Virus record (IMG/VR): IMGVR_UViG_3300002307_000002
Coordinates: 1-64,000 of that record
Source: a virus
Length of the DNA: 64,000 nt
Strand: one strand, 5' to 3'
In this document: piece after piece, positions 28,875-56,521 of the stretch
Layout of the letters: every line of letters begins with the position of its first letter
How positions within the stretch are numbered: the stretch's first letter is position 1
Notes under the pieces: generated by a model
Database searches by the model: none
The model's input: the letters and a program-made list of their open reading frames with translations, nothing else
What the model was told of the DNA's origin: nothing
Program-made: the position numbers and the translations under genes

Positions 28875-30422
28875 TTACTGGCCTGCGATACATTGGAAGT
28901 CGAAGCACCTGTTAGCCCTTAGTATCTGAATACCCTTAGAACTGAAGCGTGTGTATGCGCTCTTATCCTGGTCGGTAGACAGTAAGGCTGTACGTGACTC
29001 GTTATCAATGTTGAAGCTATTGGTCATTACCTGCAAGCTCTTAGGCATGTTGGTAAGACCCGCAATTACACCATGCTGAAAGGCACGGCCTTTTTGCGCT
29101 ACGTGCTGGATGTTTGGTTGGCCATCGTAGTCATTGTCGTCAATGAATACCATACGGTAGCTTTCCAGCGGCCAGCCTGTTTCCGGGTGAACATAACCAC
29201 CAGCCTGTTGTGTCATAGCCACTTGGCCCATGTCAAATAGCGGGTTATGTTTCACTTTTATGTAATAACCATCCATGTGGTAAAAGGCATCGAAGTAACC
29301 ACCTAATGCCAGGTTGTAACCTGTACCAGATACGAATTTGCTACCCACATCGCTTACGCTGCCAAAGCTCTGGAAGAATGTACCACCAACTTTCTTAATA
29401 GCTTTATCAAATGCCCTCATACCGCCACGGCCTGTATGAAGTGTGATGCTGGCACCAGCTGTATCAGAAAGGCCGAACAGAGCGTCACCAATCTGATTGC
29501 TCAGGTAGTCATACGTGAGGTCAGAATAAGTGCTCTTGTTCTGTATCTGCTCCAGCAAGCCAGAACCAGTAGGTATCACTTTACCAGTAAGCAAATCTTT
29601 CAGTGCAATCTCACCATTGGCAGCACGGTTGTAACGGCTGTACCAGTAGTTGTGTTCGCAAATGCTTAACCACTCCAGTTCATACTGCCACATGGCCCAG
29701 TCCATCCAAACGTCAGTTTCACCTTTGTCGGTTTTAACGTTGATTTTCATAACCTTGTTGGCACTGTTACCAGCCCAACTAAAGCCATGGCGAAGGAAGC
29801 CCATCTGGTTTTTGTATGAACCCGGCATTACCATCTTACCTTCGGTGGTACGAGATTCACTTTCAGCCACAGCTGTGGTGATAGCTGACCATGCAGCGCC
29901 GCTTTGCAATTCAGTCAGCGGACAATAGTCGGTTGGCAGGGCAGCATTGAGGCTTACATTGTATTCATACTCACCGCTGCCATTCAGTTCACCATCAGCA
30001 TGCACGTAAGCCTGAATGCCACGGGCAGATTGTATGATGAAAAAGCGCTTAATCCAATTGTCCTGGAAACGGATTTTAAACTGTGTATTACCGATACCAG
30101 GCTTATCACCAGAGCTGTACGGAGTAGAGCTTACGATGGAAGCTTTGGTGATACGGCCCATTACAGGGTAAGTAAACTGAACGTCATCCAGTTCTACGGC
30201 AGCCCTTTTCATAGCATTGCCTTCATAGCCAATGCCGCCTAAGGTCATCAGTGAAATAGGATAGTTCTTTGTGTAGTCACCCATTATATAGGTGAGCTTC
30301 TTGGTGAGTTCGGAAGGGTGACCCTGACGCTGGTGGTAGAAGTTCGTCTCATCCAGCATTGATTTGCTGTCAAAGATTGCCTCGGTCACCTGGTATTTAA
30401 GGGCCGGCATAGGATTAGCCAT
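28875..30422 (-). CDS. Major capsid protein (crAss type, HK97 fold)
   Basis: 515 aa; GSGLLEQI, LHTGRGGMRAF, HPETGWPLESYRM motifs; position after portal and scaffold. Confidence 0.9.
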   Translation of the reverse strand: MANPMPALKYQVTEAIFDSKSMLDETNFYHQRQGHPSELTKKLTYIMGDYTKNYPISLMTLGGIGYEGNAMKRAAVELDDVQFTYPVMGRITKASIVSSTPYSSGDKPGIGNTQFKIRFQDNWIKRFFIIQSARGIQAYVHADGELNGSGEYEYNVSLNAALPTDYCPLTELQSGAAWSAITTAVAESESRTTEGKMVMPGSYKNQMGFLRHGFSWAGNSANKVMKINVKTDKGETDVWMDWAMWQYELEWLSICEHNYWYSRYNRAANGEIALKDLLTGKVIPTGSGLLEQIQNKSTYSDLTYDYLSNQIGDALFGLSDTAGASITLHTGRGGMRAFDKAIKKVGGTFFQSFGSVSDVGSKFVSGTGYNLALGGYFDAFYHMDGYYIKVKHNPLFDMGQVAMTQQAGGYVHPETGWPLESYRMVFIDDNDYDGQPNIQHVAQKGRAFQHGVIAGLTNMPKSLQVMTNSFNIDNESRTALLSTDQDKSAYTRFSSKGIQILRANRCFDFQCIAGQ

Positions 30423-31637: not shown

Positions 31638-34103
31638 TTAGTTCTTAGAAGACTTGTATCTTATAGCCTTAACCTTCTGCTTCTCAATGCGTTCTTTGCT
31701 CTTCAGCTTCTCCCTTTCCAGCTGTAGTTTCTGTTGGGCCTGTTGGTGTTGAAGACTGGCTACATGCTCACGGCTACTGATTTCAGCATAAGCCTTACGC
31801 TCCTCAGATGCAACCTTGCTGGCTGCTATCACACGTTTGGATATTTCTGAAGCATCAGGTATGCCATTGTTGTTGGCATCACCAGTAGTCATACCAGCGG
31901 CTTCAAGAGCATATTCACCAACAATCATCTGGTTTTCATCTTTTCTATCCCACTCTGCATTGATTTCCTCTATCTTGAGCTGTGAAGCAATCTTGAGGAA
32001 TTGCTCTTTCATGGCCTCAACCTCTTTCTCGTGTTGCTGCTCAGCTTCCTGATTAGCCTGGGCCTGTTGAGTTTCAATGTTTTCAATCTCCTTCAGCTTG
32101 GCTTTTAATTCAGCCACATTGTTACTGTGCTGTATTTCAAGAACAGTGGAAAGTTTGATGTCAGGACGTTGAAGCATGGTTTGTGCGCCTTGCTTGTACT
32201 CTTGCAATGTTTGTAATTCTGAGGCTGAACCGTTGACAAACAAGCCCAGTTCTGCATTACAGTAGCTGTTGGGGTCAATGTCCAGCAGCTCTTTATCGAA
32301 ATCATCCTGGTTGTAGATAGCCCGGATGCCGTCTGTGTTTATGAATTTGGAAAAGTCAAGTATACCCTGCAGTTCACGTTCTGTGAATTCCTCATACAGC
32401 GTGAATATCATATCTGTAATCACAGAAGACTGATACATCAGGTTTTGCTGTACTCCCAATCCTTCTCCGCTGGGGGCAGTCTGGCCTTTGCGCGGAGCAT
32501 TGATACCCAGTACATCATCCCAGTCTTTCTTAAAGCTGTCACGCAGCATGATGAGTTTTTCAATCTGGTCAAACAAGCTCATGTCTACCGTGGTATACTG
32601 GTTGAAACTTTTGTCTACACCCTGTTGATTTCTATCAATCATGGCATAGCCCAGCGCATCTGCATAATAGAAGAACTTTTCATCATTCCATCCATTCTTC
32701 CTTGGGATAACGTTTTGGTCAAAGATGAATATCTTACCCTTGTTCTTAGCTATAGTTTTCTCCAGTGTGAAGTTGGTTATCATGTACATGATGGCATAGG
32801 GTACACCCATTTCCATCACGGATATGTTATCACTGTGAACATCGCTGTAATGCCTGCCGTTGTATGGCAGCTTACAGGTGGAGTAGTTGTTCATCTCATT
32901 GCGCTGAACAGGCACGGCCCGCATCTTGGCAAAGGTGTTATCTCCTATTCTCCAGCCTTCGAGAGCTTCATTCACCCACTCAGTTTTGGTTATCTTAACA
33001 CCCATGCCTGCCTGTACGTCCTCATCCACTATCATTTCCTGTATCTTGCCCGTTAGTGGGTCTGTGTATTCAGCATGTTTAATCTCCTTACGGCTTTTCC
33101 AGCATACGTGGTACACTGGTATCTTACCGCTGTAGGTGTCGTATTTGGAAAACTCTTCTTGTAAGTAGTTGTACATGGAGAAAGGGGTAACCCAATGGCT
33201 TCTCTTCTCCAGTTCTTCGTGGTCTGCATCTTTCAGTTCATCATAAAAGCGGTCTACCACATCTGAAATGGTCATAAGAATACGCCTTACTGTCCATTCA
33301 CCATCTTCAATGTATTCTATGTTAGGACTTTTGTCAAAGTCAATCTCCAACGGGCTAACACGTTCATATACAAAGTTTCCCAGCTCAATGTTCTTATAGC
33401 TATATACCCTGCCGGTAACCAGCCAGTCTCTGAACATCTTGAGCAACTTAGGGCGTATGTAGTACTCCCTTAATGCCCTCTTCATCCAGCGCTGGCCTTG
33501 TATAGCCAGGTTATCTTTATAGTTGGCTGTTTTCCGTTCCTTTACGCTTTCAGGTATTTCAATTTCATCATCCTGAGGTATCTCTTGTCCATCCTGTAAC
33601 TGCCCAGCTTCTTTCATTTTCTGCTGAGCAATAGCCATGAAGTGTTCTTGCAGGTTACTCTCTACAGCTTTATTCATACTTTCCACATAGCTGTTAAATC
33701 CTTCTTCACCCATGTTCACCACTTGGAATGAAAATGGCCTCTTAGGGTATTCTCCCATTAAGAGGTCAATGTTCGTCCGTATCATGGTAGTCGGGCGTAT
33801 CTTGGCAGGGTAGCGTGTGTGCTGTGGGTCAGCTGCATTAAGAGGGTCAGTGAAATGGCTAAACCACTCAAGAGGGAAGTGGTTGTTGTATATCTGGTAC
33901 AGCATCCTCAAATCTTTACGGGCAGAAGGAGCCGTACCGAAGTTGAAGTTAGATAGATGAATGTAGTAGTCTATGTTCTTCTTGAACCAGTCGTACTTAT
34001 CAGCAATCTTCTCACTCCAGCTTAAACGTTGCAGAGGTCTGCCGGTAGGCACCTCACGTTTGACTGAGTCTGGTTTATCCCTCTCGTTGATTGAATTGGC
34101 CAT
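31638..34103 (-). CDS. Portal protein
   Basis: 821 aa; IDLLMGEYPKRP, KLPYNG, C-terminal coiled coil; follows terminase. Confidence 0.9.
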   Translation of the reverse strand: MANSINERDKPDSVKREVPTGRPLQRLSWSEKIADKYDWFKKNIDYYIHLSNFNFGTAPSARKDLRMLYQIYNNHFPLEWFSHFTDPLNAADPQHTRYPAKIRPTTMIRTNIDLLMGEYPKRPFSFQVVNMGEEGFNSYVESMNKAVESNLQEHFMAIAQQKMKEAGQLQDGQEIPQDDEIEIPESVKERKTANYKDNLAIQGQRWMKRALREYYIRPKLLKMFRDWLVTGRVYSYKNIELGNFVYERVSPLEIDFDKSPNIEYIEDGEWTVRRILMTISDVVDRFYDELKDADHEELEKRSHWVTPFSMYNYLQEEFSKYDTYSGKIPVYHVCWKSRKEIKHAEYTDPLTGKIQEMIVDEDVQAGMGVKITKTEWVNEALEGWRIGDNTFAKMRAVPVQRNEMNNYSTCKLPYNGRHYSDVHSDNISVMEMGVPYAIMYMITNFTLEKTIAKNKGKIFIFDQNVIPRKNGWNDEKFFYYADALGYAMIDRNQQGVDKSFNQYTTVDMSLFDQIEKLIMLRDSFKKDWDDVLGINAPRKGQTAPSGEGLGVQQNLMYQSSVITDMIFTLYEEFTERELQGILDFSKFINTDGIRAIYNQDDFDKELLDIDPNSYCNAELGLFVNGSASELQTLQEYKQGAQTMLQRPDIKLSTVLEIQHSNNVAELKAKLKEIENIETQQAQANQEAEQQHEKEVEAMKEQFLKIASQLKIEEINAEWDRKDENQMIVGEYALEAAGMTTGDANNNGIPDASEISKRVIAASKVASEERKAYAEISSREHVASLQHQQAQQKLQLEREKLKSKERIEKQKVKAIRYKSSKN

Positions 34104-34117
34104 ACTGTTGTAAATTA

Positions 34118-36226
34118 CTACCCCAGCATGCTTGTGCTTCCTGCTCCCTGTGAAGCATAGTTACCCCCAAAGAGTGGTCGGGTGTAAAATCCCTGGTCAT
34201 CTTCTGTAGTTCTTGATTCCTCTTTATAAGCGTTTTCCTTGAGCATGAACATGGCTAGTCTGCCAGCGGATAGTCGGTCAGCATTCTTTTCAGGGTTATA
34301 TTTCTTCATCTCCCGTAACATACCGATGTCATAGCAGCGGTGGATATTCAATATAGGCTTACCATCCTCTGTATACCCCCGCACTTTGGTGTGCCAGTTA
34401 ACCAGATAGGTGATACCTAGCCTGGCTTTTTCTGTACCCATATTCATAAAAATGGCCCGGTTGCGTTGAGAAGCTGTGGAATTGTATTCCTTGTTATTAC
34501 CCATCATCTCTGGCTCTCTCTCCAGCTTGTGTAAGAGTTTGTTCGTTTTGGCATAATCCACTATACCCTGCCCACCACCAGCTATCTCTGATTGGATGGT
34601 ACAGTTATAAAGGTCTGATAGCATGAACAGATTGGCGTAAGCTGTATCAAGATTCTGGGGACGGCCCACATACCAGGCTATCGGCAGTTCCTCATCCACC
34701 GGGCTAAGCTGGTTGAATTGCTTCCACACTTGCACTACAAACAGGGAAGTGAGGTCTTCACTCTCTTCTTTGTAATATGGGTCAACAACTATCTGGTACA
34801 TTCCATCTGGAACGTTACCACGCTGATCACGGAATGGTGCGGCAACTATTGTGATACAGCCTTCAAGGTCGTCTTTCTGGTTGTGAGGGTATTGCTCTAC
34901 TGGCTTAGCTACATCCTTTGGCTGAGGAATGAACATCACACCCAGCTTTTCATCCCTGATGAGATGGCCATACCTTAGCATACCCTGTATAGCCTGTTGG
35001 GTTTCAATCCTTCTTATCTGTGCATCTACTTCAGCTACATTGAAAGAGTTCTTTCTCAGCCTCTTGAACGCCTCAGATGGGAACAGTGGATACTCAGCTT
35101 TATGTCCGTCAAGTACCTGCGGGTCTTTGGCCTTCTTCTTTTGTACCCGTATCTTTTTCTCACTCTCAATGGCCATGACAATATCCACGTTACCATTCTC
35201 ATCCATGAATGTGGACTTGGTACGCCACACCGGTACGAAATATCCACATGTAGTATTCTCAAATCCAGGTTCCCACACATTGGGGAAAGCAAGCATATCA
35301 AAACTTTCCGGGTCATAAAACATATCTTCCAGCCCTTCAATATCCGGGCCTTCTTCACCACCAGTACCCAGCACTGTTATCTGTCCTACGTATATGTCAC
35401 CATCCTTCATAGAACCTTGACACACGTTGTAGGCTTTCTTCAGATTGCGGAGTGAACCACTTTCTTCAAAGGTTATCTTGCGACCACGTTTGCCTCTCGT
35501 CTTATCAGGGTCATCAACTACTACCCCCATGATTTCAGACATGCTACCACGTTCCACCCCGAATGAATCTACGTAGCTGGCCCTCATGTGCATGAGTGTG
35601 TTCTTCTTCTGCCTGTTCTTCTTCCAGTCCGGGCAGTTATCATTCACCCAATCCAGCATTGGTAATACCTTATTCAATATACCATCAGTGGTGAGGTACT
35701 GTTCAATACCAGCATAGTAGTAGTTTTTGCTGCCGTCTATGAACACGTAATTGTATACTCCATCAGCAGCTTCCATATAGCTCCATCCTGCACCACGGGC
35801 TTTGGCACACACCATGTGCCGGGCCCCGGGGGATTGTATTCCCATAAACTCTCCACCGTGCCAGGCTATATGTTTAAATCTGTTCCACTCATAGCCTATC
35901 TCATAGAAACGAGGAAAGCTGAATATCTTTTCAGCCGTAAGCTTGCCTATCTTGCCCTTACCATTCTTAGCTTCATTAAAAGCTTGTATACCAATGTTAT
36001 CCGGCACTTTCCATATAGGGGCAAAGTTCAGGTAGAAGTAATGCCGACCAGTAATCCATGTATCCCCAATCTTGTATCCTTCTTTACAGCGCTTGGCTTC
36101 GATAGCCCAAAACTCTTCCCACTCCCTGCTTCCCACTGGCGCCAAACAATAGCGCCCGCCATTCTTTGAAAAATCACGGGCTGTGTAAGAAAACTGTGCT
36201 GTATTTGTAAGGTTATGCCACCCCAT
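34118..36226 (-). CDS. terL: Terminase large subunit
   Basis: ITGRHYFYLNF, KARGAGWS (Walker A), FEESG (Walker B), GTGG coupling motif, VDPY nuclease, NADR. Confidence 0.92.
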   Translation of the reverse strand: MGWHNLTNTAQFSYTARDFSKNGGRYCLAPVGSREWEEFWAIEAKRCKEGYKIGDTWITGRHYFYLNFAPIWKVPDNIGIQAFNEAKNGKGKIGKLTAEKIFSFPRFYEIGYEWNRFKHIAWHGGEFMGIQSPGARHMVCAKARGAGWSYMEAADGVYNYVFIDGSKNYYYAGIEQYLTTDGILNKVLPMLDWVNDNCPDWKKNRQKKNTLMHMRASYVDSFGVERGSMSEIMGVVVDDPDKTRGKRGRKITFEESGSLRNLKKAYNVCQGSMKDGDIYVGQITVLGTGGEEGPDIEGLEDMFYDPESFDMLAFPNVWEPGFENTTCGYFVPVWRTKSTFMDENGNVDIVMAIESEKKIRVQKKKAKDPQVLDGHKAEYPLFPSEAFKRLRKNSFNVAEVDAQIRRIETQQAIQGMLRYGHLIRDEKLGVMFIPQPKDVAKPVEQYPHNQKDDLEGCITIVAAPFRDQRGNVPDGMYQIVVDPYYKEESEDLTSLFVVQVWKQFNQLSPVDEELPIAWYVGRPQNLDTAYANLFMLSDLYNCTIQSEIAGGGQGIVDYAKTNKLLHKLEREPEMMGNNKEYNSTASQRNRAIFMNMGTEKARLGITYLVNWHTKVRGYTEDGKPILNIHRCYDIGMLREMKKYNPEKNADRLSAGRLAMFMLKENAYKEESRTTEDDQGFYTRPLFGGNYASQGAGSTSMLG

Positions 36227-36614: not shown

Positions 36615-37300
36615 ATATCTTCCTCCTTTTCATCTTCATCATCTATTCCACGTAATAGTTGTCCTATGTCATTGAAACTCACTGAAGCTGCAGCAGGAGC
36701 AGCAGTCTCTTCTTTCCACTCACCCATGCCAGCGGTTTCCTTGCGGCCCAGGGTGGCTGTACCACGGATACTGGTTTCACCTTTCAGCTCTTCCTGTACA
36801 CGTTTGCGGAATTTGTCTACACTGTCATAGGCAGCCCCTATCCGCTGAAGGTTAAGAATGTATTTGGCTGGGTCGTGCAGTATCTCTCCTTTTTTATCTA
36901 CGGCTGAGAAATCTATGGTGTTGAAGTAATCATCCATGGCATCCAGAGATTTCTCAATCGCCTGTAATGTCTTCAAGCTGCGGGATGACTTGAGAAGGAG
37001 TTGATTGTACAAAGCATGCGCTTCCATCACCGGCCCATCAAGGTCAGCTTCTGTGAGCCCAGCGTATCTCATTGCTTCCTGCCGTCTCTCAAAATCTTCC
37101 CACTCACGGATCGGGGAGGTGAAGTCTAAATCGAAATATATGAAAGTGAACTCCCGGCGTGCTTTCAGTTTCTTGTCTCCACGGTAGTCTCCGGCTGAGC
37201 CTTTGTCCCGTTTAATCAGGAAGCTAAATTCTGGTATCAGGTACAGCCATTCCTTGTTCAAGTCTACCTGGTAACCTTCATCGAGTATGAATAATCTCAT
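36611..37300 (-). CDS. Conserved crAss-like protein upstream of TerL (possible small terminase)
   Basis: 229 aa helical; RDK...KARREFTFIYF; position. Confidence 0.55.
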   Translation of the reverse strand: MRLFILDEGYQVDLNKEWLYLIPEFSFLIKRDKGSAGDYRGDKKLKARREFTFIYFDLDFTSPIREWEDFERRQEAMRYAGLTEADLDGPVMEAHALYNQLLLKSSRSLKTLQAIEKSLDAMDDYFNTIDFSAVDKKGEILHDPAKYILNLQRIGAAYDSVDKFRKRVQEELKGETSIRGTATLGRKETAGMGEWKEETAAPAAASVSFNDIGQLLRGIDDEDEKEEDI

Positions 37301-37608
37301 GCTTCACCTCCTTCTGCTGCAAACAGCTGGTTGAGTTCAGTCTGTGTAAGCCCTTTCAATACAGCTTTGTCTACCGGCCCTAAGCTGTGGTAGTAGTCCT
37401 TGAACTGCTGCTCTCCATGCTTTACCATAATCTTTCCGAGGTATGGGATAAATACTCCTTCCATTCCTCCTGAACGTATGGTGGTAGCAATGAACTCTCC
37501 GTAGTGGTGTACTGCATGCTCAACTATCATCAAGGAAACATTCTGCTCCTCAGCTACTTCCTTAGCGATGCGTTTGTTACAGGTTGTATTTGATTGTTTT
37601 GGATTCAT
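37297..37608 (-). CDS. HU/IHF-like DNA-binding protein
   Basis: IAKEVAEE...GVFIPYLGKIMVK resembles the HU fold. Confidence 0.6.
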   Translation of the reverse strand: MNPKQSNTTCNKRIAKEVAEEQNVSLMIVEHAVHHYGEFIATTIRSGGMEGVFIPYLGKIMVKHGEQQFKDYYHSLGPVDKAVLKGLTQTELNQLFAAEGGEA

Positions 37609-38388: not shown

Positions 38389-38628
38389 TTAGTGCTTTGG
38401 GTGTGTAGTGTCTGTAGCAGCTTTATCCTGCATCTGTACCTGAGAGTATATTACTTGCTGAAGCTGAGTGATAACTGTGTGCTCTGCTTCACTTTTGTCA
38501 AGCGCGTAGCCTAATGCTTGCACTTGAGCAGGGGTGAGTATCAGATGGTATTGAGTTGGTGGATTGCCAACTTTGAATGCAAGAAGGCTCAAGGATAGCA
38601 GAAGGATGGCTCCTTTCAGTAGTTTCAT
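38389..38628 (-). CDS. Small protein with signal peptide
   Basis: MKLLKGAILLLSLSLLAF N-terminus. Confidence 0.6.
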   Translation of the reverse strand: MKLLKGAILLLSLSLLAFKVGNPPTQYHLILTPAQVQALGYALDKSEAEHTVITQLQQVIYSQVQMQDKAATDTTHPKH

Positions 38629-38650: not shown

Positions 38651-39022
38651 TTATCGGGTTACAGCTTTAACAGCATACATCTGGGCTGTCTCCAGGTTGG
38701 TTTTGGCTATGGCTGCCAATCTGTTAATGCTTCCTACTTGTTTAGCTGAAAGCATGGTTGGCCCTGTTAGTTTAACTTTCACCCATTTGTCAATCTCATC
38801 ATAAGTATCAGCAAATACTTGCTTGATACACTTGACATCTTCCCTCTGGCCCGGGTTGAATGTTACCGACATCTCCTCTTGTCCCTCGGTTATGGTGCGT
38901 GTCTGAGCGTTGTGCAGTTCTTTCCAGGTTTTAAAGCTGTCTTCAATTACTGGCTGTCCAAGTGGTAATGTGGTTAGGTACTTACCAAATTCAAGAAGGT
39001 CTTGTTCTGTGTAGAGTTTCAT
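38651..39022 (-). CDS. Protein with C-terminal Acb2/Tad1-like helical hairpin (candidate nucleotide-signal sponge)
   Basis: TFNPG...V..IK...RLAAIAKTNLETAQMYAVKAVT; likely start MKLYTEQ. Confidence 0.65.
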   Translation of the reverse strand: MKLYTEQDLLEFGKYLTTLPLGQPVIEDSFKTWKELHNAQTRTITEGQEEMSVTFNPGQREDVKCIKQVFADTYDEIDKWVKVKLTGPTMLSAKQVGSINRLAAIAKTNLETAQMYAVKAVTR

Positions 39023-39134: not shown

Positions 39135-39476
39135 TTAACAATCTATATTTATATACGTTGAAATTCTCATATTTAAACCTTTAAACTCATCCGTAGTTAT
39201 TAATCTTCCTAAGCATGGGTCATAAATATGGCCAGACATCCAGAGTACCCAATGCCAGTTATTTGTTCTCAGTGTTTTGTTTCTTGATATACACAAGGCT
39301 GTGTGATGTGTAGGTTTTTTTGTCTTCTTTCCAAGTTTTATATGTACTGATAGCTCTTTAGTAGTAGTTCCTTTAACATGCCCTATTAACTTGATAGCAG
39401 ATTCAAGCGATATGTTTAACACAGTAGCAAGACAGCAATGCCCACAAAGACTACTTCCGGTTGGTTGTTGTATCAT
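39135..39476 (-). CDS. C39-like cysteine peptidase domain protein
   Basis: QQPTGSSLCGHCCLATVL...GTT...HWVL...IYDP (Q/C/H/D catalytic pattern); likely start MIQQP. Confidence 0.65.
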   Translation of the reverse strand: MIQQPTGSSLCGHCCLATVLNISLESAIKLIGHVKGTTTKELSVHIKLGKKTKKPTHHTALCISRNKTLRTNNWHWVLWMSGHIYDPCLGRLITTDEFKGLNMRISTYINIDC

Positions 39477-40041: not shown

Positions 40042-40719
40042 ATGTCACGCAAAATTGTAATCGGCGACAACGAAATCGAATTGAAAGAAAGTGCTATCAA
40101 GTGGACACTTACCACAACACAGGCAGTGTTTAACAAACGCAGGGAGTATTCTGCTGAGCATGCTGGTTCACGCTTTAAGTTTCTGGTAGGTAAAGCAGGT
40201 GCTCAAGTTGTACAGGCTATGGCTGTAGTGAATGCCAAGGGTGAAACTGTAATGGCTGCCAATGGCTCTGGTGTATTGCTGAAAAAGATTTACAACCTGG
40301 TTGCCAACAGTGCAGAGGCTGTAAGAAGGCTTGAGCCGGTATTGATGGCCGCAGTGGATGCTGAAGAAGGTGGCGACAAAGACCTTGCAGCAGACCTGTA
40401 CAACTATTACCTGAACCGCACTGCCATCAGCTTCAACGTGTTGAGCACATCCAGCCAGTATGAGCAGGATTTGTGCATGAGCGAGATTGAGGCTGAGCTT
40501 CAGGAAGTGAAAACCGAGAATGGCAGTATCCTGACCATTGCTGCTGGTACTATCAAGGTGCTTAAAGCTGAGTATGGTGCTAAGGCTGCTGAGCTTCCAA
40601 GCAATCCATTTGCTCGTATTGCTGCACAGCGTAAGGCTGCTACCGGGAAGGATGGTAGTGGTGAGGGTGTGAGAACACATCAGGTGAACATACCTGAAGG
40701 TGCTGCACTGACCGTGTAA
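40042..40719 (+). CDS. Hypothetical protein
   Basis: 225-aa ORF with strongly biased codon usage. Confidence 0.75.
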   Translation: MSRKIVIGDNEIELKESAIKWTLTTTQAVFNKRREYSAEHAGSRFKFLVGKAGAQVVQAMAVVNAKGETVMAANGSGVLLKKIYNLVANSAEAVRRLEPVLMAAVDAEEGGDKDLAADLYNYYLNRTAISFNVLSTSSQYEQDLCMSEIEAELQEVKTENGSILTIAAGTIKVLKAEYGAKAAELPSNPFARIAAQRKAATGKDGSGEGVRTHQVNIPEGAALTV

Positions 40720-53972: not shown

Positions 53973-54387
53973 TTGGTACAACAGTCTTTACAAATCCTTA
54001 TCCAATGTCAGATATGCAGCATATAGCAGGAAAGCAGTTCCTGATATAGAAACCCTGAAACTACAGTTAGAAGCAGACCCTTATATTCACATATACACAA
54101 TCCTTTCACATTACCCCATATTTTCTCAAGCTGATGAGGAAAACATCAGGTTGGGTAAGCAGTCCCGTGCATTTCTGGAAGACAGCCAGAGGGTACGGAT
54201 AGGGGATGATTGGTATATAGATGAGTTCGGCTTTTATGTGTATCTGGTGTCAAGATTAGGATATGAACAAGACCAGGACAGGCGGTATGACACCCCTGAA
54301 CCTGAATTATTTAACCTTGAACATGTAGAACATGATATATGTGATAGGAAACCCGACAGAATGGATTCCCGAATATCAACCGGGTAA
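53893..54387 (+). CDS. Hypothetical protein
   Basis: 164-aa ORF; start uncertain. Confidence 0.55.
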   Translation: MVTVMTADRKRLILREVRKPLQQVSPNWYNSLYKSLSNVRYAAYSRKAVPDIETLKLQLEADPYIHIYTILSHYPIFSQADEENIRLGKQSRAFLEDSQRVRIGDDWYIDEFGFYVYLVSRLGYEQDQDRRYDTPEPELFNLEHVEHDICDRKPDRMDSRISTG

Positions 54388-56521
54388 GTGGGAAGACTTC
54401 GCAAGCTGGTTGGAAAAGCTACCAGAGGTAGAATTTGACATTGAGACTAATCCATCTGACTGGTGGTGTGACAAACAGGTTATCACTGTACAGTTTGGCT
54501 GGGCCGGGATTGAGTGGGTACTGCAATGGAGTGAGCTTACAGATGAGCAAAAAGCCTTCATCAAATCTAAACTGGAAGACAAGAAACTATGCAAACTCAT
54601 TCACAATGCTCAGTTTGAGTGTGTGGTAATGCTATTCCATGGCATCCGTGTTCAGAATGTGTATGATACTATGCTGGCTGAGATGGTTTTACAGGGCGGG
54701 GAACATGAAGTCGGTTATGGCCTGGACGATGTATGCTTCCGCTATCTGCTAACCATGTTGGATAAAAGTCAACAGACAGCTTTTGGCGATAACATCCTCA
54801 CTTCTGAGAAGGTGATATATGCCGCGCAGGATGTGAAACATCTGGCTAACATACGTACAGCTATTCGCCAGCAGGCTATTCAGCTGAACTATGACACCTT
54901 CGATAAAGTGGTGGAGCTGGAGAATAATTGTGTACCAGCTTTTGCCGAGATGGTGTATCATGGCATGGAAATCGACCAGCCGTGGTGGCGTAGTCTTCAA
55001 GCTGAGGCAGAACCATTGGTAGCAGCAGCTCAGGAGAAACTCAATGAGTGGCTGAAACAAGAGCCGTTTTACAGCAAGGCTATCGAGCTGGGGTATATTT
55101 CCATTAAAGACAGGCTTCTGTTAAACTGGAACAGTCCTAAGCAGAAAGACCAGGTGTTTGCTGACATCTACCCAGAACTGCCGGGCACGTCCAAGGCTGT
55201 ACTCAAACGCTGGCAGAGTGATAAGCTCAAGGCTGGATTACCGGTGCCTTCCTGGCTGCCTTATTACCTCGATGGAGATACTTCAGAAGTAACTAAAGAC
55301 CTGATGGAGCATCACCGGGATTACCTGATAACTAATCATCAGCTTATACCTGCAGAGACTCCGTCCTTGAATTGGGGCAGCACTGACCAGGTATTGCCGC
55401 TTGTTAAGCTTGTTGAGCCTCAGGTTAAGGATTTATCGAAAGAAACTAAGGGCAGGTGTGCGCACCCTATTGTAGCAGACCTTGATGATTATCTTGATAC
55501 CCTCAAGCTGATAGGGACTTATGGTGAGGCGTTTCTTACAGGCAATCCAAAGGCTAAAGATAGCAAGCCTAAGGTAGAGCCAGATGGTAAAGTTCGTACC
55601 TCTTTTACCCAGGTAATGACGACAGGACGGGTTTCGAGTAAAAAGCCGAACATGCAAAACATCCCTGCGAAGGAAACTGTAGGCAATAAATACCGTAACG
55701 CTTTCATACCAGAAAAAGGCTGGGTGTTTGTCTCATCAGATTATGTTAGCCAGGAGCTTATCAATATTGCATACCTCTCTAAAGACCCTGTATGGATTGA
55801 TGCTTTGAGTAAGGGCCAAGACCTGCACAGTGTAGCTGCAGAGCTCGTATACGGTAAGAAATGGCGGGAAGCTGCTGAGCAAGGTTGTGCTTACTATCAG
55901 AAGAACAAGCAAAAATGCTCTTGTAAACGGCACAAGTACCTACGCACTGGGGTAAAATCTATCAATTTCGGTTTGGCCTACGGAATGTCCCATTTCAAGC
56001 TCGCATCTGAGTTACGTATTACAGTGCCAGAAGCTAAAAAATTGATTGAGGACTACTTCAATGCTTTCCCAGGGTTGAAAAGTTTGCTGGATTACTTTGG
56101 TCGGTTTGGTGTCGAGAAAGGATATATACAGACTATTAAACCTCTATATCGCAGGCGCTGGTTCCCAAACCACAAGTTTTACACCCGTTTTATTGACGCT
56201 CACCTTCAAGGAGCACAGTATCATGGTGGCCTTGGAGAAATTGAACGGGCGTCAAAAAACATGCCAATACAAGGCACGGCTGCTGACTCGATGAAGGAAG
56301 CAGTTATACGGGCCTACAATTACATTCACGATAACCAGCTTCAGGATAAGGTACATATGAAAATGCAGGTGCATGACCAACTTGATTGTGAGGTTGTAGA
56401 GGATTTTGCCCAGGAATGGAAAATCATCCAAACCAAACTTCTTGAGGATGCTGCTCTTGTGTTCATACCTACTGGCCTTTTGAAAGCTGAAACAACAATC
56501 ACTCCCCGGTGGAGCAAGTAA
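54332..56521 (+). CDS. polA: DNA polymerase family A with 3'-5' exonuclease
   Basis: FDIET, HNAQFE, YAAQD exo motifs; TGRVSS..PNMQNIP, SDYVSQEL (A), KSINFGLAYG (B), QVHDQL (C). Confidence 0.95.
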   Translation: MIYVIGNPTEWIPEYQPGKWEDFASWLEKLPEVEFDIETNPSDWWCDKQVITVQFGWAGIEWVLQWSELTDEQKAFIKSKLEDKKLCKLIHNAQFECVVMLFHGIRVQNVYDTMLAEMVLQGGEHEVGYGLDDVCFRYLLTMLDKSQQTAFGDNILTSEKVIYAAQDVKHLANIRTAIRQQAIQLNYDTFDKVVELENNCVPAFAEMVYHGMEIDQPWWRSLQAEAEPLVAAAQEKLNEWLKQEPFYSKAIELGYISIKDRLLLNWNSPKQKDQVFADIYPELPGTSKAVLKRWQSDKLKAGLPVPSWLPYYLDGDTSEVTKDLMEHHRDYLITNHQLIPAETPSLNWGSTDQVLPLVKLVEPQVKDLSKETKGRCAHPIVADLDDYLDTLKLIGTYGEAFLTGNPKAKDSKPKVEPDGKVRTSFTQVMTTGRVSSKKPNMQNIPAKETVGNKYRNAFIPEKGWVFVSSDYVSQELINIAYLSKDPVWIDALSKGQDLHSVAAELVYGKKWREAAEQGCAYYQKNKQKCSCKRHKYLRTGVKSINFGLAYGMSHFKLASELRITVPEAKKLIEDYFNAFPGLKSLLDYFGRFGVEKGYIQTIKPLYRRRWFPNHKFYTRFIDAHLQGAQYHGGLGEIERASKNMPIQGTAADSMKEAVIRAYNYIHDNQLQDKVHMKMQVHDQLDCEVVEDFAQEWKIIQTKLLEDAALVFIPTGLLKAETTITPRWSK

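Follow-up and report, generated by a model that had tools for sequence, protein, structure and literature searches.

The locus and its genome

The window analysed here is a stretch of 64,000 nucleotides (positions 1 to 64,000 of IMG/VR record IMGVR_UViG_3300002307_000002), and its source record is a complete virus of 91,265 bp with direct terminal repeats. Its large terminase shares about 30% identity with the terminases of gut crAss-like, Azobacteroides and Flavobacterium phages, and the window DNA occurs in freshwater metagenome runs, one of which may be its source, with none listed among RNA sequencing runs; the source virus is a freshwater crAss-like phage. Its virion genes form a block on the minus strand that extends from ~39.7 kb down to base 1, with several giant proteins encoded beyond the head gene. 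The genes from position 40042 on, including that for DNA polymerase, lie on the plus strand, and the divergent junction falls between about 39.5 and 40.04 kb.

Close to the start of the virion block is the gene for a protein of 123 aa, here P0001 (Table 1). An earlier note on this DNA had drawn attention to an open reading frame with Acb2-like motifs at this position, and both are real. A minus-strand ATG-to-stop frame occupies exactly 38651-39022 in the ORF list and its translation, and every string that the note quoted is present in the product, namely YTEQDLLEFGKYL (residues 4-16), FNP (55-57), IK (66-67) and RLAAIAKTNLETAQMYAVKAVT (101-122). The start codon at 39022 is supported by a relative with an 88% identical terminase, whose protein begins with the same ten residues (MKLYTEQDLL), and by the near-invariance across the family of T45, G47 and Q48, all of which precede the sole internal methionine, M51.

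The gene had been described as lying upstream of the terminase and capsid genes, and the terminase, portal and major head protein genes do follow it downstream on the same strand. Its placement at the head of a putatively late operon holds as far as proximity to the block start is concerned, but it is the second gene, with a conserved 113-aa ORF upstream. A scan for sigma-70 promoters and terminators around the gene, the models of which do not cover Bacteroidota promoters, gave no excess over shuffled sequences.

Several neighbours merit a brief description. The 113-aa ORF has two metagenomic homologues (45-50% identity), and tblastx shows it to be conserved in a sister phage. It contains a C-G-H-C-C-L-A motif followed later by H-W-V and Y-D-P motifs and has no Pfam, PHROG or NCBIfam match; the best fold matches of its low-confidence model (pLDDT 60), none of them significant, are to cysteine peptidase domains of the papain-like or C39 type (YopQ, PCAT1, Josephin). 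The Acb2-like gene is separated from an exonuclease gene by the gene for a 79-aa protein with a signal-peptide-like hydrophobic N-terminus, a homologue of which lies downstream of the Acb2-like gene in contig L005 but upstream in L004; several relatives have none. A 103-aa protein of the packaging block, present in most relatives, matches the HU/IHF-type family PF00216 below threshold (17.9 bits against a cut-off of 22.4).

Table 1. Features of the Acb2-like locus and its surroundings (window coordinates)
Feature	Position	Strand	Description	Basis
Acb2-like CDS (P0001)	38651..39022	-	123 aa plus stop	Source record's own gene call gives the same protein
Acb2/Tad1 hairpin domain	38654..38860	-	Residues 55-123: F55 aromatic position, helix 57-86, loop, helix 93-122; bears K67, R101, A104, I105, T108, M115	Pfam PF24729, AF2, hhalign
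Conserved pre-hairpin segment	38861..38890	-	Residues 45-54, consensus T-R-G-Q-Q-V-M-S-V-S	35-homologue alignment, AF2
Lineage-specific N-terminal extension	38891..39022	-	Residues 1-44: amphipathic helix ~5-18, poorly conserved linker, second helix 29-40	Alignment, AF2
Terminase	34118-36226	-	Downstream of the Acb2-like gene	
Portal	31638-34103	-	Downstream of the Acb2-like gene	
Major head protein	28875-30422	-	Downstream of the Acb2-like gene	
113-aa ORF	39135-39476	-	Upstream of the Acb2-like gene	
79-aa protein	38389-38628	-	Signal-peptide-like N-terminus	
103-aa HU/IHF-like protein	37297-37608	-	PF00216, sub-threshold	
DNA polymerase	54332-56521	+		

Assignment to the Acb2/Tad1 hairpin family

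Residues 55-123 of P0001 match positions 2-58 of the Pfam profile PF24729 (Acb2/Tad1 hairpin) with 35.4 bits and E = 1.3e-8, the curated cut-off being 27 bits, and a scan of the whole genome recovers the identical stretch (38654-38860). The experimentally characterised Acb2 proteins of T4 (Vs.4), JBD67 and PaMx33, taken from their phage records as positive controls, reach 60-71 bits on the same profile. When a family alignment of 35 metagenomic homologue sequences was compared with the three controls by hhalign, a relationship was returned with a probability of 87% (E = 4e-6), in which R-L-A-A-I-A-K-T is paired with R-W-L-A-I-G-K-T with no gap. Sequence comparison thus supports membership of the C-terminal 69 residues in the Acb2/Tad1 hairpin family.

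Other searches gave less. A phmmer search of the PDB with P0001 found no Acb2/Tad1 chain, its single row being a capsid protein at E = 0.57 that was judged to be noise. With the family profile, Vs.4 was the sole Acb2-family chain found, matched in the I-A-K-T...M-W-A motif at a non-significant E = 0.59. The streptococcal peptidase entries listed beside it were set aside as chance matches to an Ig-like segment. No NCBIfam model matches P0001, and a MazG-like all-alpha pyrophosphatase, considered on account of the acidic first helix, is unsupported by any Pfam match.

Homologues come from metagenomes, where 43 are found at E <= 1e-12 (P0001 itself excluded). Among isolated phages the gene region has no megablast match, and tblastn gives weak matches only (E = 3e-3), in Flavobacterium phages. 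An exhaustive search with representatives also returned giant proteins of 1,000-7,000 aa, which were rejected as relatives, their similarity being to residues 48-94 only and summed over repeats. Several of these, including P0045, P0050 and P0054, all encoded outside the window, score between E = 1e-10 and 1e-19 against P0001, and P0045, the one that was scanned, has 27 Calx-beta repeats. Such repeat-summed matches are a trap for automated annotation of the Acb2 family.

The breadth of conservation bears on whether the gene might be what is left of a sponge that has decayed or lost its function, a reading that we consider barely credible. The reading frame is intact, 20 columns are invariant among the 35 homologues, which come from many samples, and the position of the gene is conserved across diverged phages.

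The predicted structure

The AF2 model of P0001 has a mean pLDDT of 83.5 and is composed of helices at residues 6-18, 29-40, 46-51, 57-86 and 93-122, the hairpin (residues 61-120) being modelled at pLDDT 89-97. The topology is that of an Acb2 protomer, in which two long antiparallel helices come after a short N-terminal element. The model contains no beta strand, and its first 44 residues form two helices. The earlier label of an Acb2/Tad1-like protein therefore stands in its Acb2-like part; the Tad1-like part does not, as the model is all-helical and has no N-terminal beta domain.

A Foldseek comparison with Acb2/Tad1 had been named as a check, and its outcome is mixed. T4 Vs.4 chains take ranks 1-3 against the PDB with a probability of up to 0.97, and VIA-align gives Z 9.3 to Vs.4 over 77 residues and Z 8.2 and 8.1 to PaMx33 Acb2 (8H2X and 8H2J, 75-77 residues each). 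However, the Foldseek E-values are about 1.4-1.7, no Tad1 chain appears among the matches listed, and designed and unrelated helical hairpins also reach Z 7-9 against the P0001 model. With scores this close from other hairpins, the fold match does not discriminate by itself.

Residues of the ligand pockets

The ligand contacts of Acb2 are known in detail from PaMx33. In that protein Y11 (by stacking) and K26 (through a salt bridge) bind cyclic dinucleotides with further contacts from L14 and P90, R67 and T74 together with the hydrophobic A70 and I71 bind cyclic trinucleotides, and mutation of Y11, K26, R67 or T74 abolishes or reduces the binding of cGAMP or cA3 (PMC10312549). In both hhalign and MAFFT alignments the second helix of P0001 aligns with that of PaMx33 Acb2 without a gap, so that R101 corresponds to R67, A104 to A70, I105 to I71, T108 to T74 and M115 to M81. 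In the MAFFT alignment of the family with the controls, K67 (equivalent to K26) and M115 occupy invariant columns, R101 and T108 are nearly invariant, and F55 shares the column of Y11. F55 also falls on position 2 of the PF24729 profile, which is Y8 or Y11 in the controls. Across the 35 homologues of the subfamily F55 and K67 never vary, and conservation reaches 90% or more at R101, I105 and T108.

The site for dinucleotides departs from that of PaMx33 in having phenylalanine for Tyr11, a spacing to the lysine that is three residues shorter and G58 in place of L14; moreover, P0001 finishes with its last helix and lacks the C-terminal Q-P tail to which P90 belongs. Given the gap-free match of R, A, I and T on the one hand, and the Phe, spacing, Gly and tail changes on the other, the trinucleotide pocket is predicted to be intact and the dinucleotide pocket to be modified. 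The pocket for cA3 or cAAG would be formed by R101, A104, I105 and T108, whereas that for cyclic dinucleotides is predicted to be present in an altered form, with K67 kept, Phe for Tyr and the Q-P tail gone. The kinship with the Acb2/Tad1 hairpin that the earlier note had proposed is thus borne out, by a Pfam score above the cut-off, by profile alignment, by T4 Vs.4 and PaMx33 Acb2 as the best PDB folds and by retention of the ligand residues.

The altered dinucleotide site raises the question of whether P0001 is an Acb2-fold sponge for a different signal, either one derived from ADPR in Thoeris defence (3'cADPR, as for Acb2_43) or a yet undescribed signal of Bacteroidota, with the N-terminal segment shaping the pocket. 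Type I Thoeris was inhibited by 10 of the 46 Acb2 homologues tested, and Acb2_43 binds 3'cADPR through an N-terminal strand instead of the tyrosine. P0001 has Phe for Tyr, and its M-S-V-T segment is extended in the model. The exact retention of the R/A/I/T residues, however, points to at least one canonical CBASS ligand, and we consider a different signal to be rather unlikely.

The pre-hairpin segment and the N-terminal extension

The ten residues that precede the hairpin form a conserved segment. Among the 35 homologues M51 and V53 are invariant and T45, G47, V50, S52 and Q48 nearly so; the AF2 model has a short helix at 46-51, and the M-S-V-T segment before F55 is extended rather than helical. 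Residues 45-54 are the counterpart of the short helix or strand with which the N-terminus of Acb2 contributes to the dinucleotide pocket.

Upstream of this segment the family diverges. Most homologues are 73-107 aa long and begin a few residues ahead of T-R-G-Q-Q-V-M-S-V-S-F-N-P, and the 44-residue extension of P0001 is common to P0007, P0008 and P0020 only among the 35 aligned homologues; P0032 has an extension of similar length that is unrelated. The extension is real and translated, as indicated by the identical first ten residues in the relative with the 88% identical terminase, and it is modelled at pLDDT 74-84. Conservation within it is confined to the first helix (consensus roughly L-x-x-F-G-x-Y-L), and the next 25 residues vary freely. 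Residues 1-44 match no Pfam or PHROG family, find nothing usable in the protein atlas and no homologue when queried alone, which rules out a known fused domain at the N-terminus. Of the fused N-terminal domain of ~50 aa that had been described previously, there remain 44 real extra residues, common to three close relatives, but no recognisable domain and no family match.

RyR fusions in sister phages

In sister proteins the place of the extension is taken by a RyR domain (PF02026), as in P0011, P0025, P0031, P0040, P0044, P0046 and the product of L068:4275-4982; in P0001 itself PF02026 finds no match even at E <= 10. P0011 matches 35TM, the structure of RyDEP, a phage RyR-domain anti-Thoeris protein that degrades or sequesters Thoeris signals (PMC13232231). 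It has His, Trp, His and Asp residues spaced as are the ligand and catalytic residues H75, W78, H100 and D117 of RyDEP, an equivalence drawn from match offsets and the RyR alignment rather than from a residue-level alignment to 35TM. Through this domain-fusion link, the RyR fusions would tie the Acb2-like core to the neutralisation of immune signals. The RyDEP and Acb2 literature consulted contains no mention of RyR-Acb2 fusions.

The anti-Thoeris type of RyR domain in sister proteins also implies that this lineage faces ADPR-type signalling, which would favour a sponge for Thoeris signals. An anti-Thoeris fusion could equally mean that two modules act against different systems. One may envisage a fixed Acb2 core as a chassis with a swappable N-terminal slot, which is empty in some proteins, filled by a short helix here and by a RyDEP-type RyR domain with catalytic residues in others. 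A single polypeptide might then neutralise two kinds of signal, sequestering cyclic oligonucleotides and cleaving or binding cADPR isomers. We offer this as a tentative scheme that is rather unlikely to be correct. Were it true, the 44-residue piece would be an undescribed add-on, perhaps a gate to the dinucleotide pocket, an extra ligand site or a means of docking to a host or phage partner, and the RyR-Acb2 fusions would be natural two-module inhibitors of Thoeris (as enzyme or sponge) and CBASS (as sponge).

A conserved slot with a variable occupant

Related IMG/VR contigs were gathered by searches with the family alignment and a terminase alignment. The gene order that they keep comprises the Acb2-like gene, in some cases the small signal-peptide protein, a PD-(D/E)XK-type exonuclease, the HU-like protein, a 229-aa protein, the terminase and the portal. 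Eleven contigs combine a terminase identity of 52% or more with sufficient upstream DNA, and in 10 of these 11 the slot holds a gene that the family profile matches. Each of the five slot genes scanned with Pfam (5/5) passes the PF24729 cut-off, and positional orthologues score 37-53 bits on it; an ORF on the opposite strand (L067:1776-2390) is matched by the family profile but not by the Pfam model. The remaining case, L055, has a 57% identical terminase and is without both the Acb2-like gene and the exonuclease.

Further features of these contigs were recorded in passing. Fusions of an Acb2-like core with an N-terminal RyR domain occupy the orthologous slot at L068:4275-4985 (+), L008:7596-8246 (+) and L010:7533-8243 (+). 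In L055 the block opens with ORFs of 82 and 155 aa of unknown kind (L055:4600-5700), which are followed by the HU-like gene. The terL ORF, usually about 700 aa, reaches 1,041 aa in L067:5050-8175 (+), which is L015:2180-5305 (-) of the same IMG/VR contig, and 1,122 aa in L070:5051-8419; the flanking identity of about 71% suggests an inserted element, for example an intein or homing endonuclease.

The regularity of this arrangement invites the view that the protein is a non-immune housekeeping hairpin of a packaging or DNA-handling block, serving as an accessory to the exonuclease, the HU-like protein or the terminase, or as a regulator, and that its likeness to Acb2 reflects ancestry or fold only. 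The slot is fixed beside the exonuclease, HU-like and terminase genes in the 10 of 11 contigs, and the core is 57-75% identical where the portal is only 40-85% identical, which is unusual for an accessory anti-defence gene. Long hairpins are, moreover, a common arrangement, and one FNP-type homologue was inactive in 7/7 assays.

Set against this, the contigs fall into two sets, with core identities to P0001 of 57-75% and 29-36%, and at a terminase identity of 52-57% the slot carries a 68% allele, alleles of roughly 30% or nothing, an exchange pattern typical of counter-defence slots. The alleles of roughly 30% identity are classical FNPS-type Acb2 homologues. The slot is stable, and its occupant is exchanged or unevenly evolving; a counter-defence locus would account for this better than a housekeeping gene inherited strictly vertically, although the strong conservation within the main set still speaks for the latter. 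The absence of the gene from L055 makes it dispensable for that virion; the conserved positions go beyond heptad positions and are exactly the ligand contacts of Acb2; the RyR/RyDEP fusions point toward immune signalling; and known acb2 genes, such as that of JBD67, are also found among structural genes. A housekeeping role is, in our estimation, distinctly unlikely.

Proposed function

Collectively these results lead us to propose, with a probability of roughly 65%, that the gene encodes a phage sponge of the Acb2 family, its hexamer, ligands and effect on defence being extrapolated by analogy with characterised members. The basis obtained here is family membership by sequence, the topology of the model protomer, residue conservation and a conserved genomic slot. 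On this proposal, protomers consisting of a short N-terminal element and a long two-helix hairpin would form an interlocked homo-hexamer of the kind typical for Acb2. This assembly would sequester the cyclic oligonucleotide messengers that CBASS-type immunity of the host makes upon infection, so that the CBASS effector would never be switched on. The 44-residue extension may project from the hexamer vertices near the dinucleotide pocket.

Counted against the sponge are the non-significant sequence searches of the PDB, the non-specific fold match, the Phe, spacing and tail changes of the dinucleotide site and the inactivity of Acb2_2, together with the observation that the gene is near-fixed in this clade of phages, with a degree of conservation similar to that of the terminase. 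Such a pattern fits a housekeeping gene no worse than an accessory anti-defence one. Taken as a whole, P0001 is a further member of the known Acb2 sponge family with a predicted sponge role, a credible but ordinary result that mostly confirms a good annotation.

Acb2 sponges are the most widespread known answer of phages to CBASS, and most work on them concerns phages that infect Pseudomonas, E. coli and Bacillus. The near-fixation of an Acb2-type gene in an environmental crAss-like clade suggests that cyclic-oligonucleotide signalling is a standing pressure in Bacteroidota-type hosts, and the exactly kept trinucleotide pocket leads to a specific, checkable prediction, namely the binding of cA3 or cAAG.

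Comparison with known systems

Tad1 shares the PF24729 hairpin with P0001, and its hairpin region also forms cyclic trinucleotide pockets; it differs in that an N-terminal beta-sheet domain builds its gcADPR pocket, whereas the P0001 model is wholly helical. RyDEP (PDB 35TM) resembles the RyR domain in orthologues of P0001, but P0001 itself is without RyR and is linked to RyDEP through the architecture of its relatives alone.

A survey of such proteins by Hadary et al. (2025) included 46 cloned Acb2 homologues. Of the 84 sponge homologues tested there, 65 were active against one or more of the seven signalling systems assayed, and a CBASS system was among the targets of most Acb2 proteins. Of the F-N-P-type homologues, Acb2_8, Acb2_12, Acb2_41 and Acb2_42 blocked cGAMP CBASS, Acb2_12 also acting on type I Thoeris, and Acb2_15 blocked cUA CBASS, whereas Acb2_2 inhibited 0/7 systems (Hadary et al., 2025). 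None of the tested Acb2 proteins is a close relative of P0001, and its subfamily, which ends in L-E-T-A-Q-M-Y-A-V-K-A-V-T-R, does not appear among the Table S1 entries examined. A positional orthologue from contig L061 (IMGVR_UViG_3300022745_000022; BLASTP E = 7e-11 to P0001) is among the Acb2 homologues of Table S1. Compared by eye, the FNPS-type Acb2 proteins of that study share with P0001 the F-N-P followed by V-x-x-I-K and an ending of the form A-x-M-(W/Y/F)-A-V-K-A, and Acb2_15 also shares the loop G-P-(S/T)-M-L-S-A. Acb2_41, which by the same visual comparison carries roughly 25-30 additional residues at its N-terminus, is active, and a head piece of that size is thus compatible with anti-CBASS activity.

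T4 Vs.4 (T4 Acb2, PDB 7UQ2) is the best structural match of P0001, but it has Asp where P0001 and PaMx33 Acb2 have the trinucleotide-binding Arg (PMC10312549), so that the P0001 pocket looks more PaMx33-like. The Acb2 proteins of PaMx33 and JBD67 (PDB 8H2J/8H2X) share with P0001 the PF24729 family, the short N-terminal element with two long antiparallel helices, and the gap-free pattern R-x-x-A-I-x-K-T-x-(L/I)-x-T-x-x-M-x-x-x-(K/R)-A in the second helix. The trinucleotide-pocket residues R67, A70, I71 and T74 and the dinucleotide-pocket residue K26 are identical. Identity over the second helix is about 24%, and P0001 differs in the change of Tyr11 to Phe, the spacing to Lys that is three residues shorter, the loss of the Q-P-(D/E) tail (P90) and the additional 44-residue extension. 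The host systems differ likewise, P0001 belonging to a freshwater Bacteroidota-type phage system, PaMx33 and JBD67 being phages of Pseudomonas. In JBD67, acb2 lies between the genes for the major head protein and the head-tail adaptor, and the P0001 gene is similarly placed among virion and packaging genes; as known acb2 genes sit in varied positions, including this one between head genes, the location of the P0001 gene is unremarkable for a member of the family.
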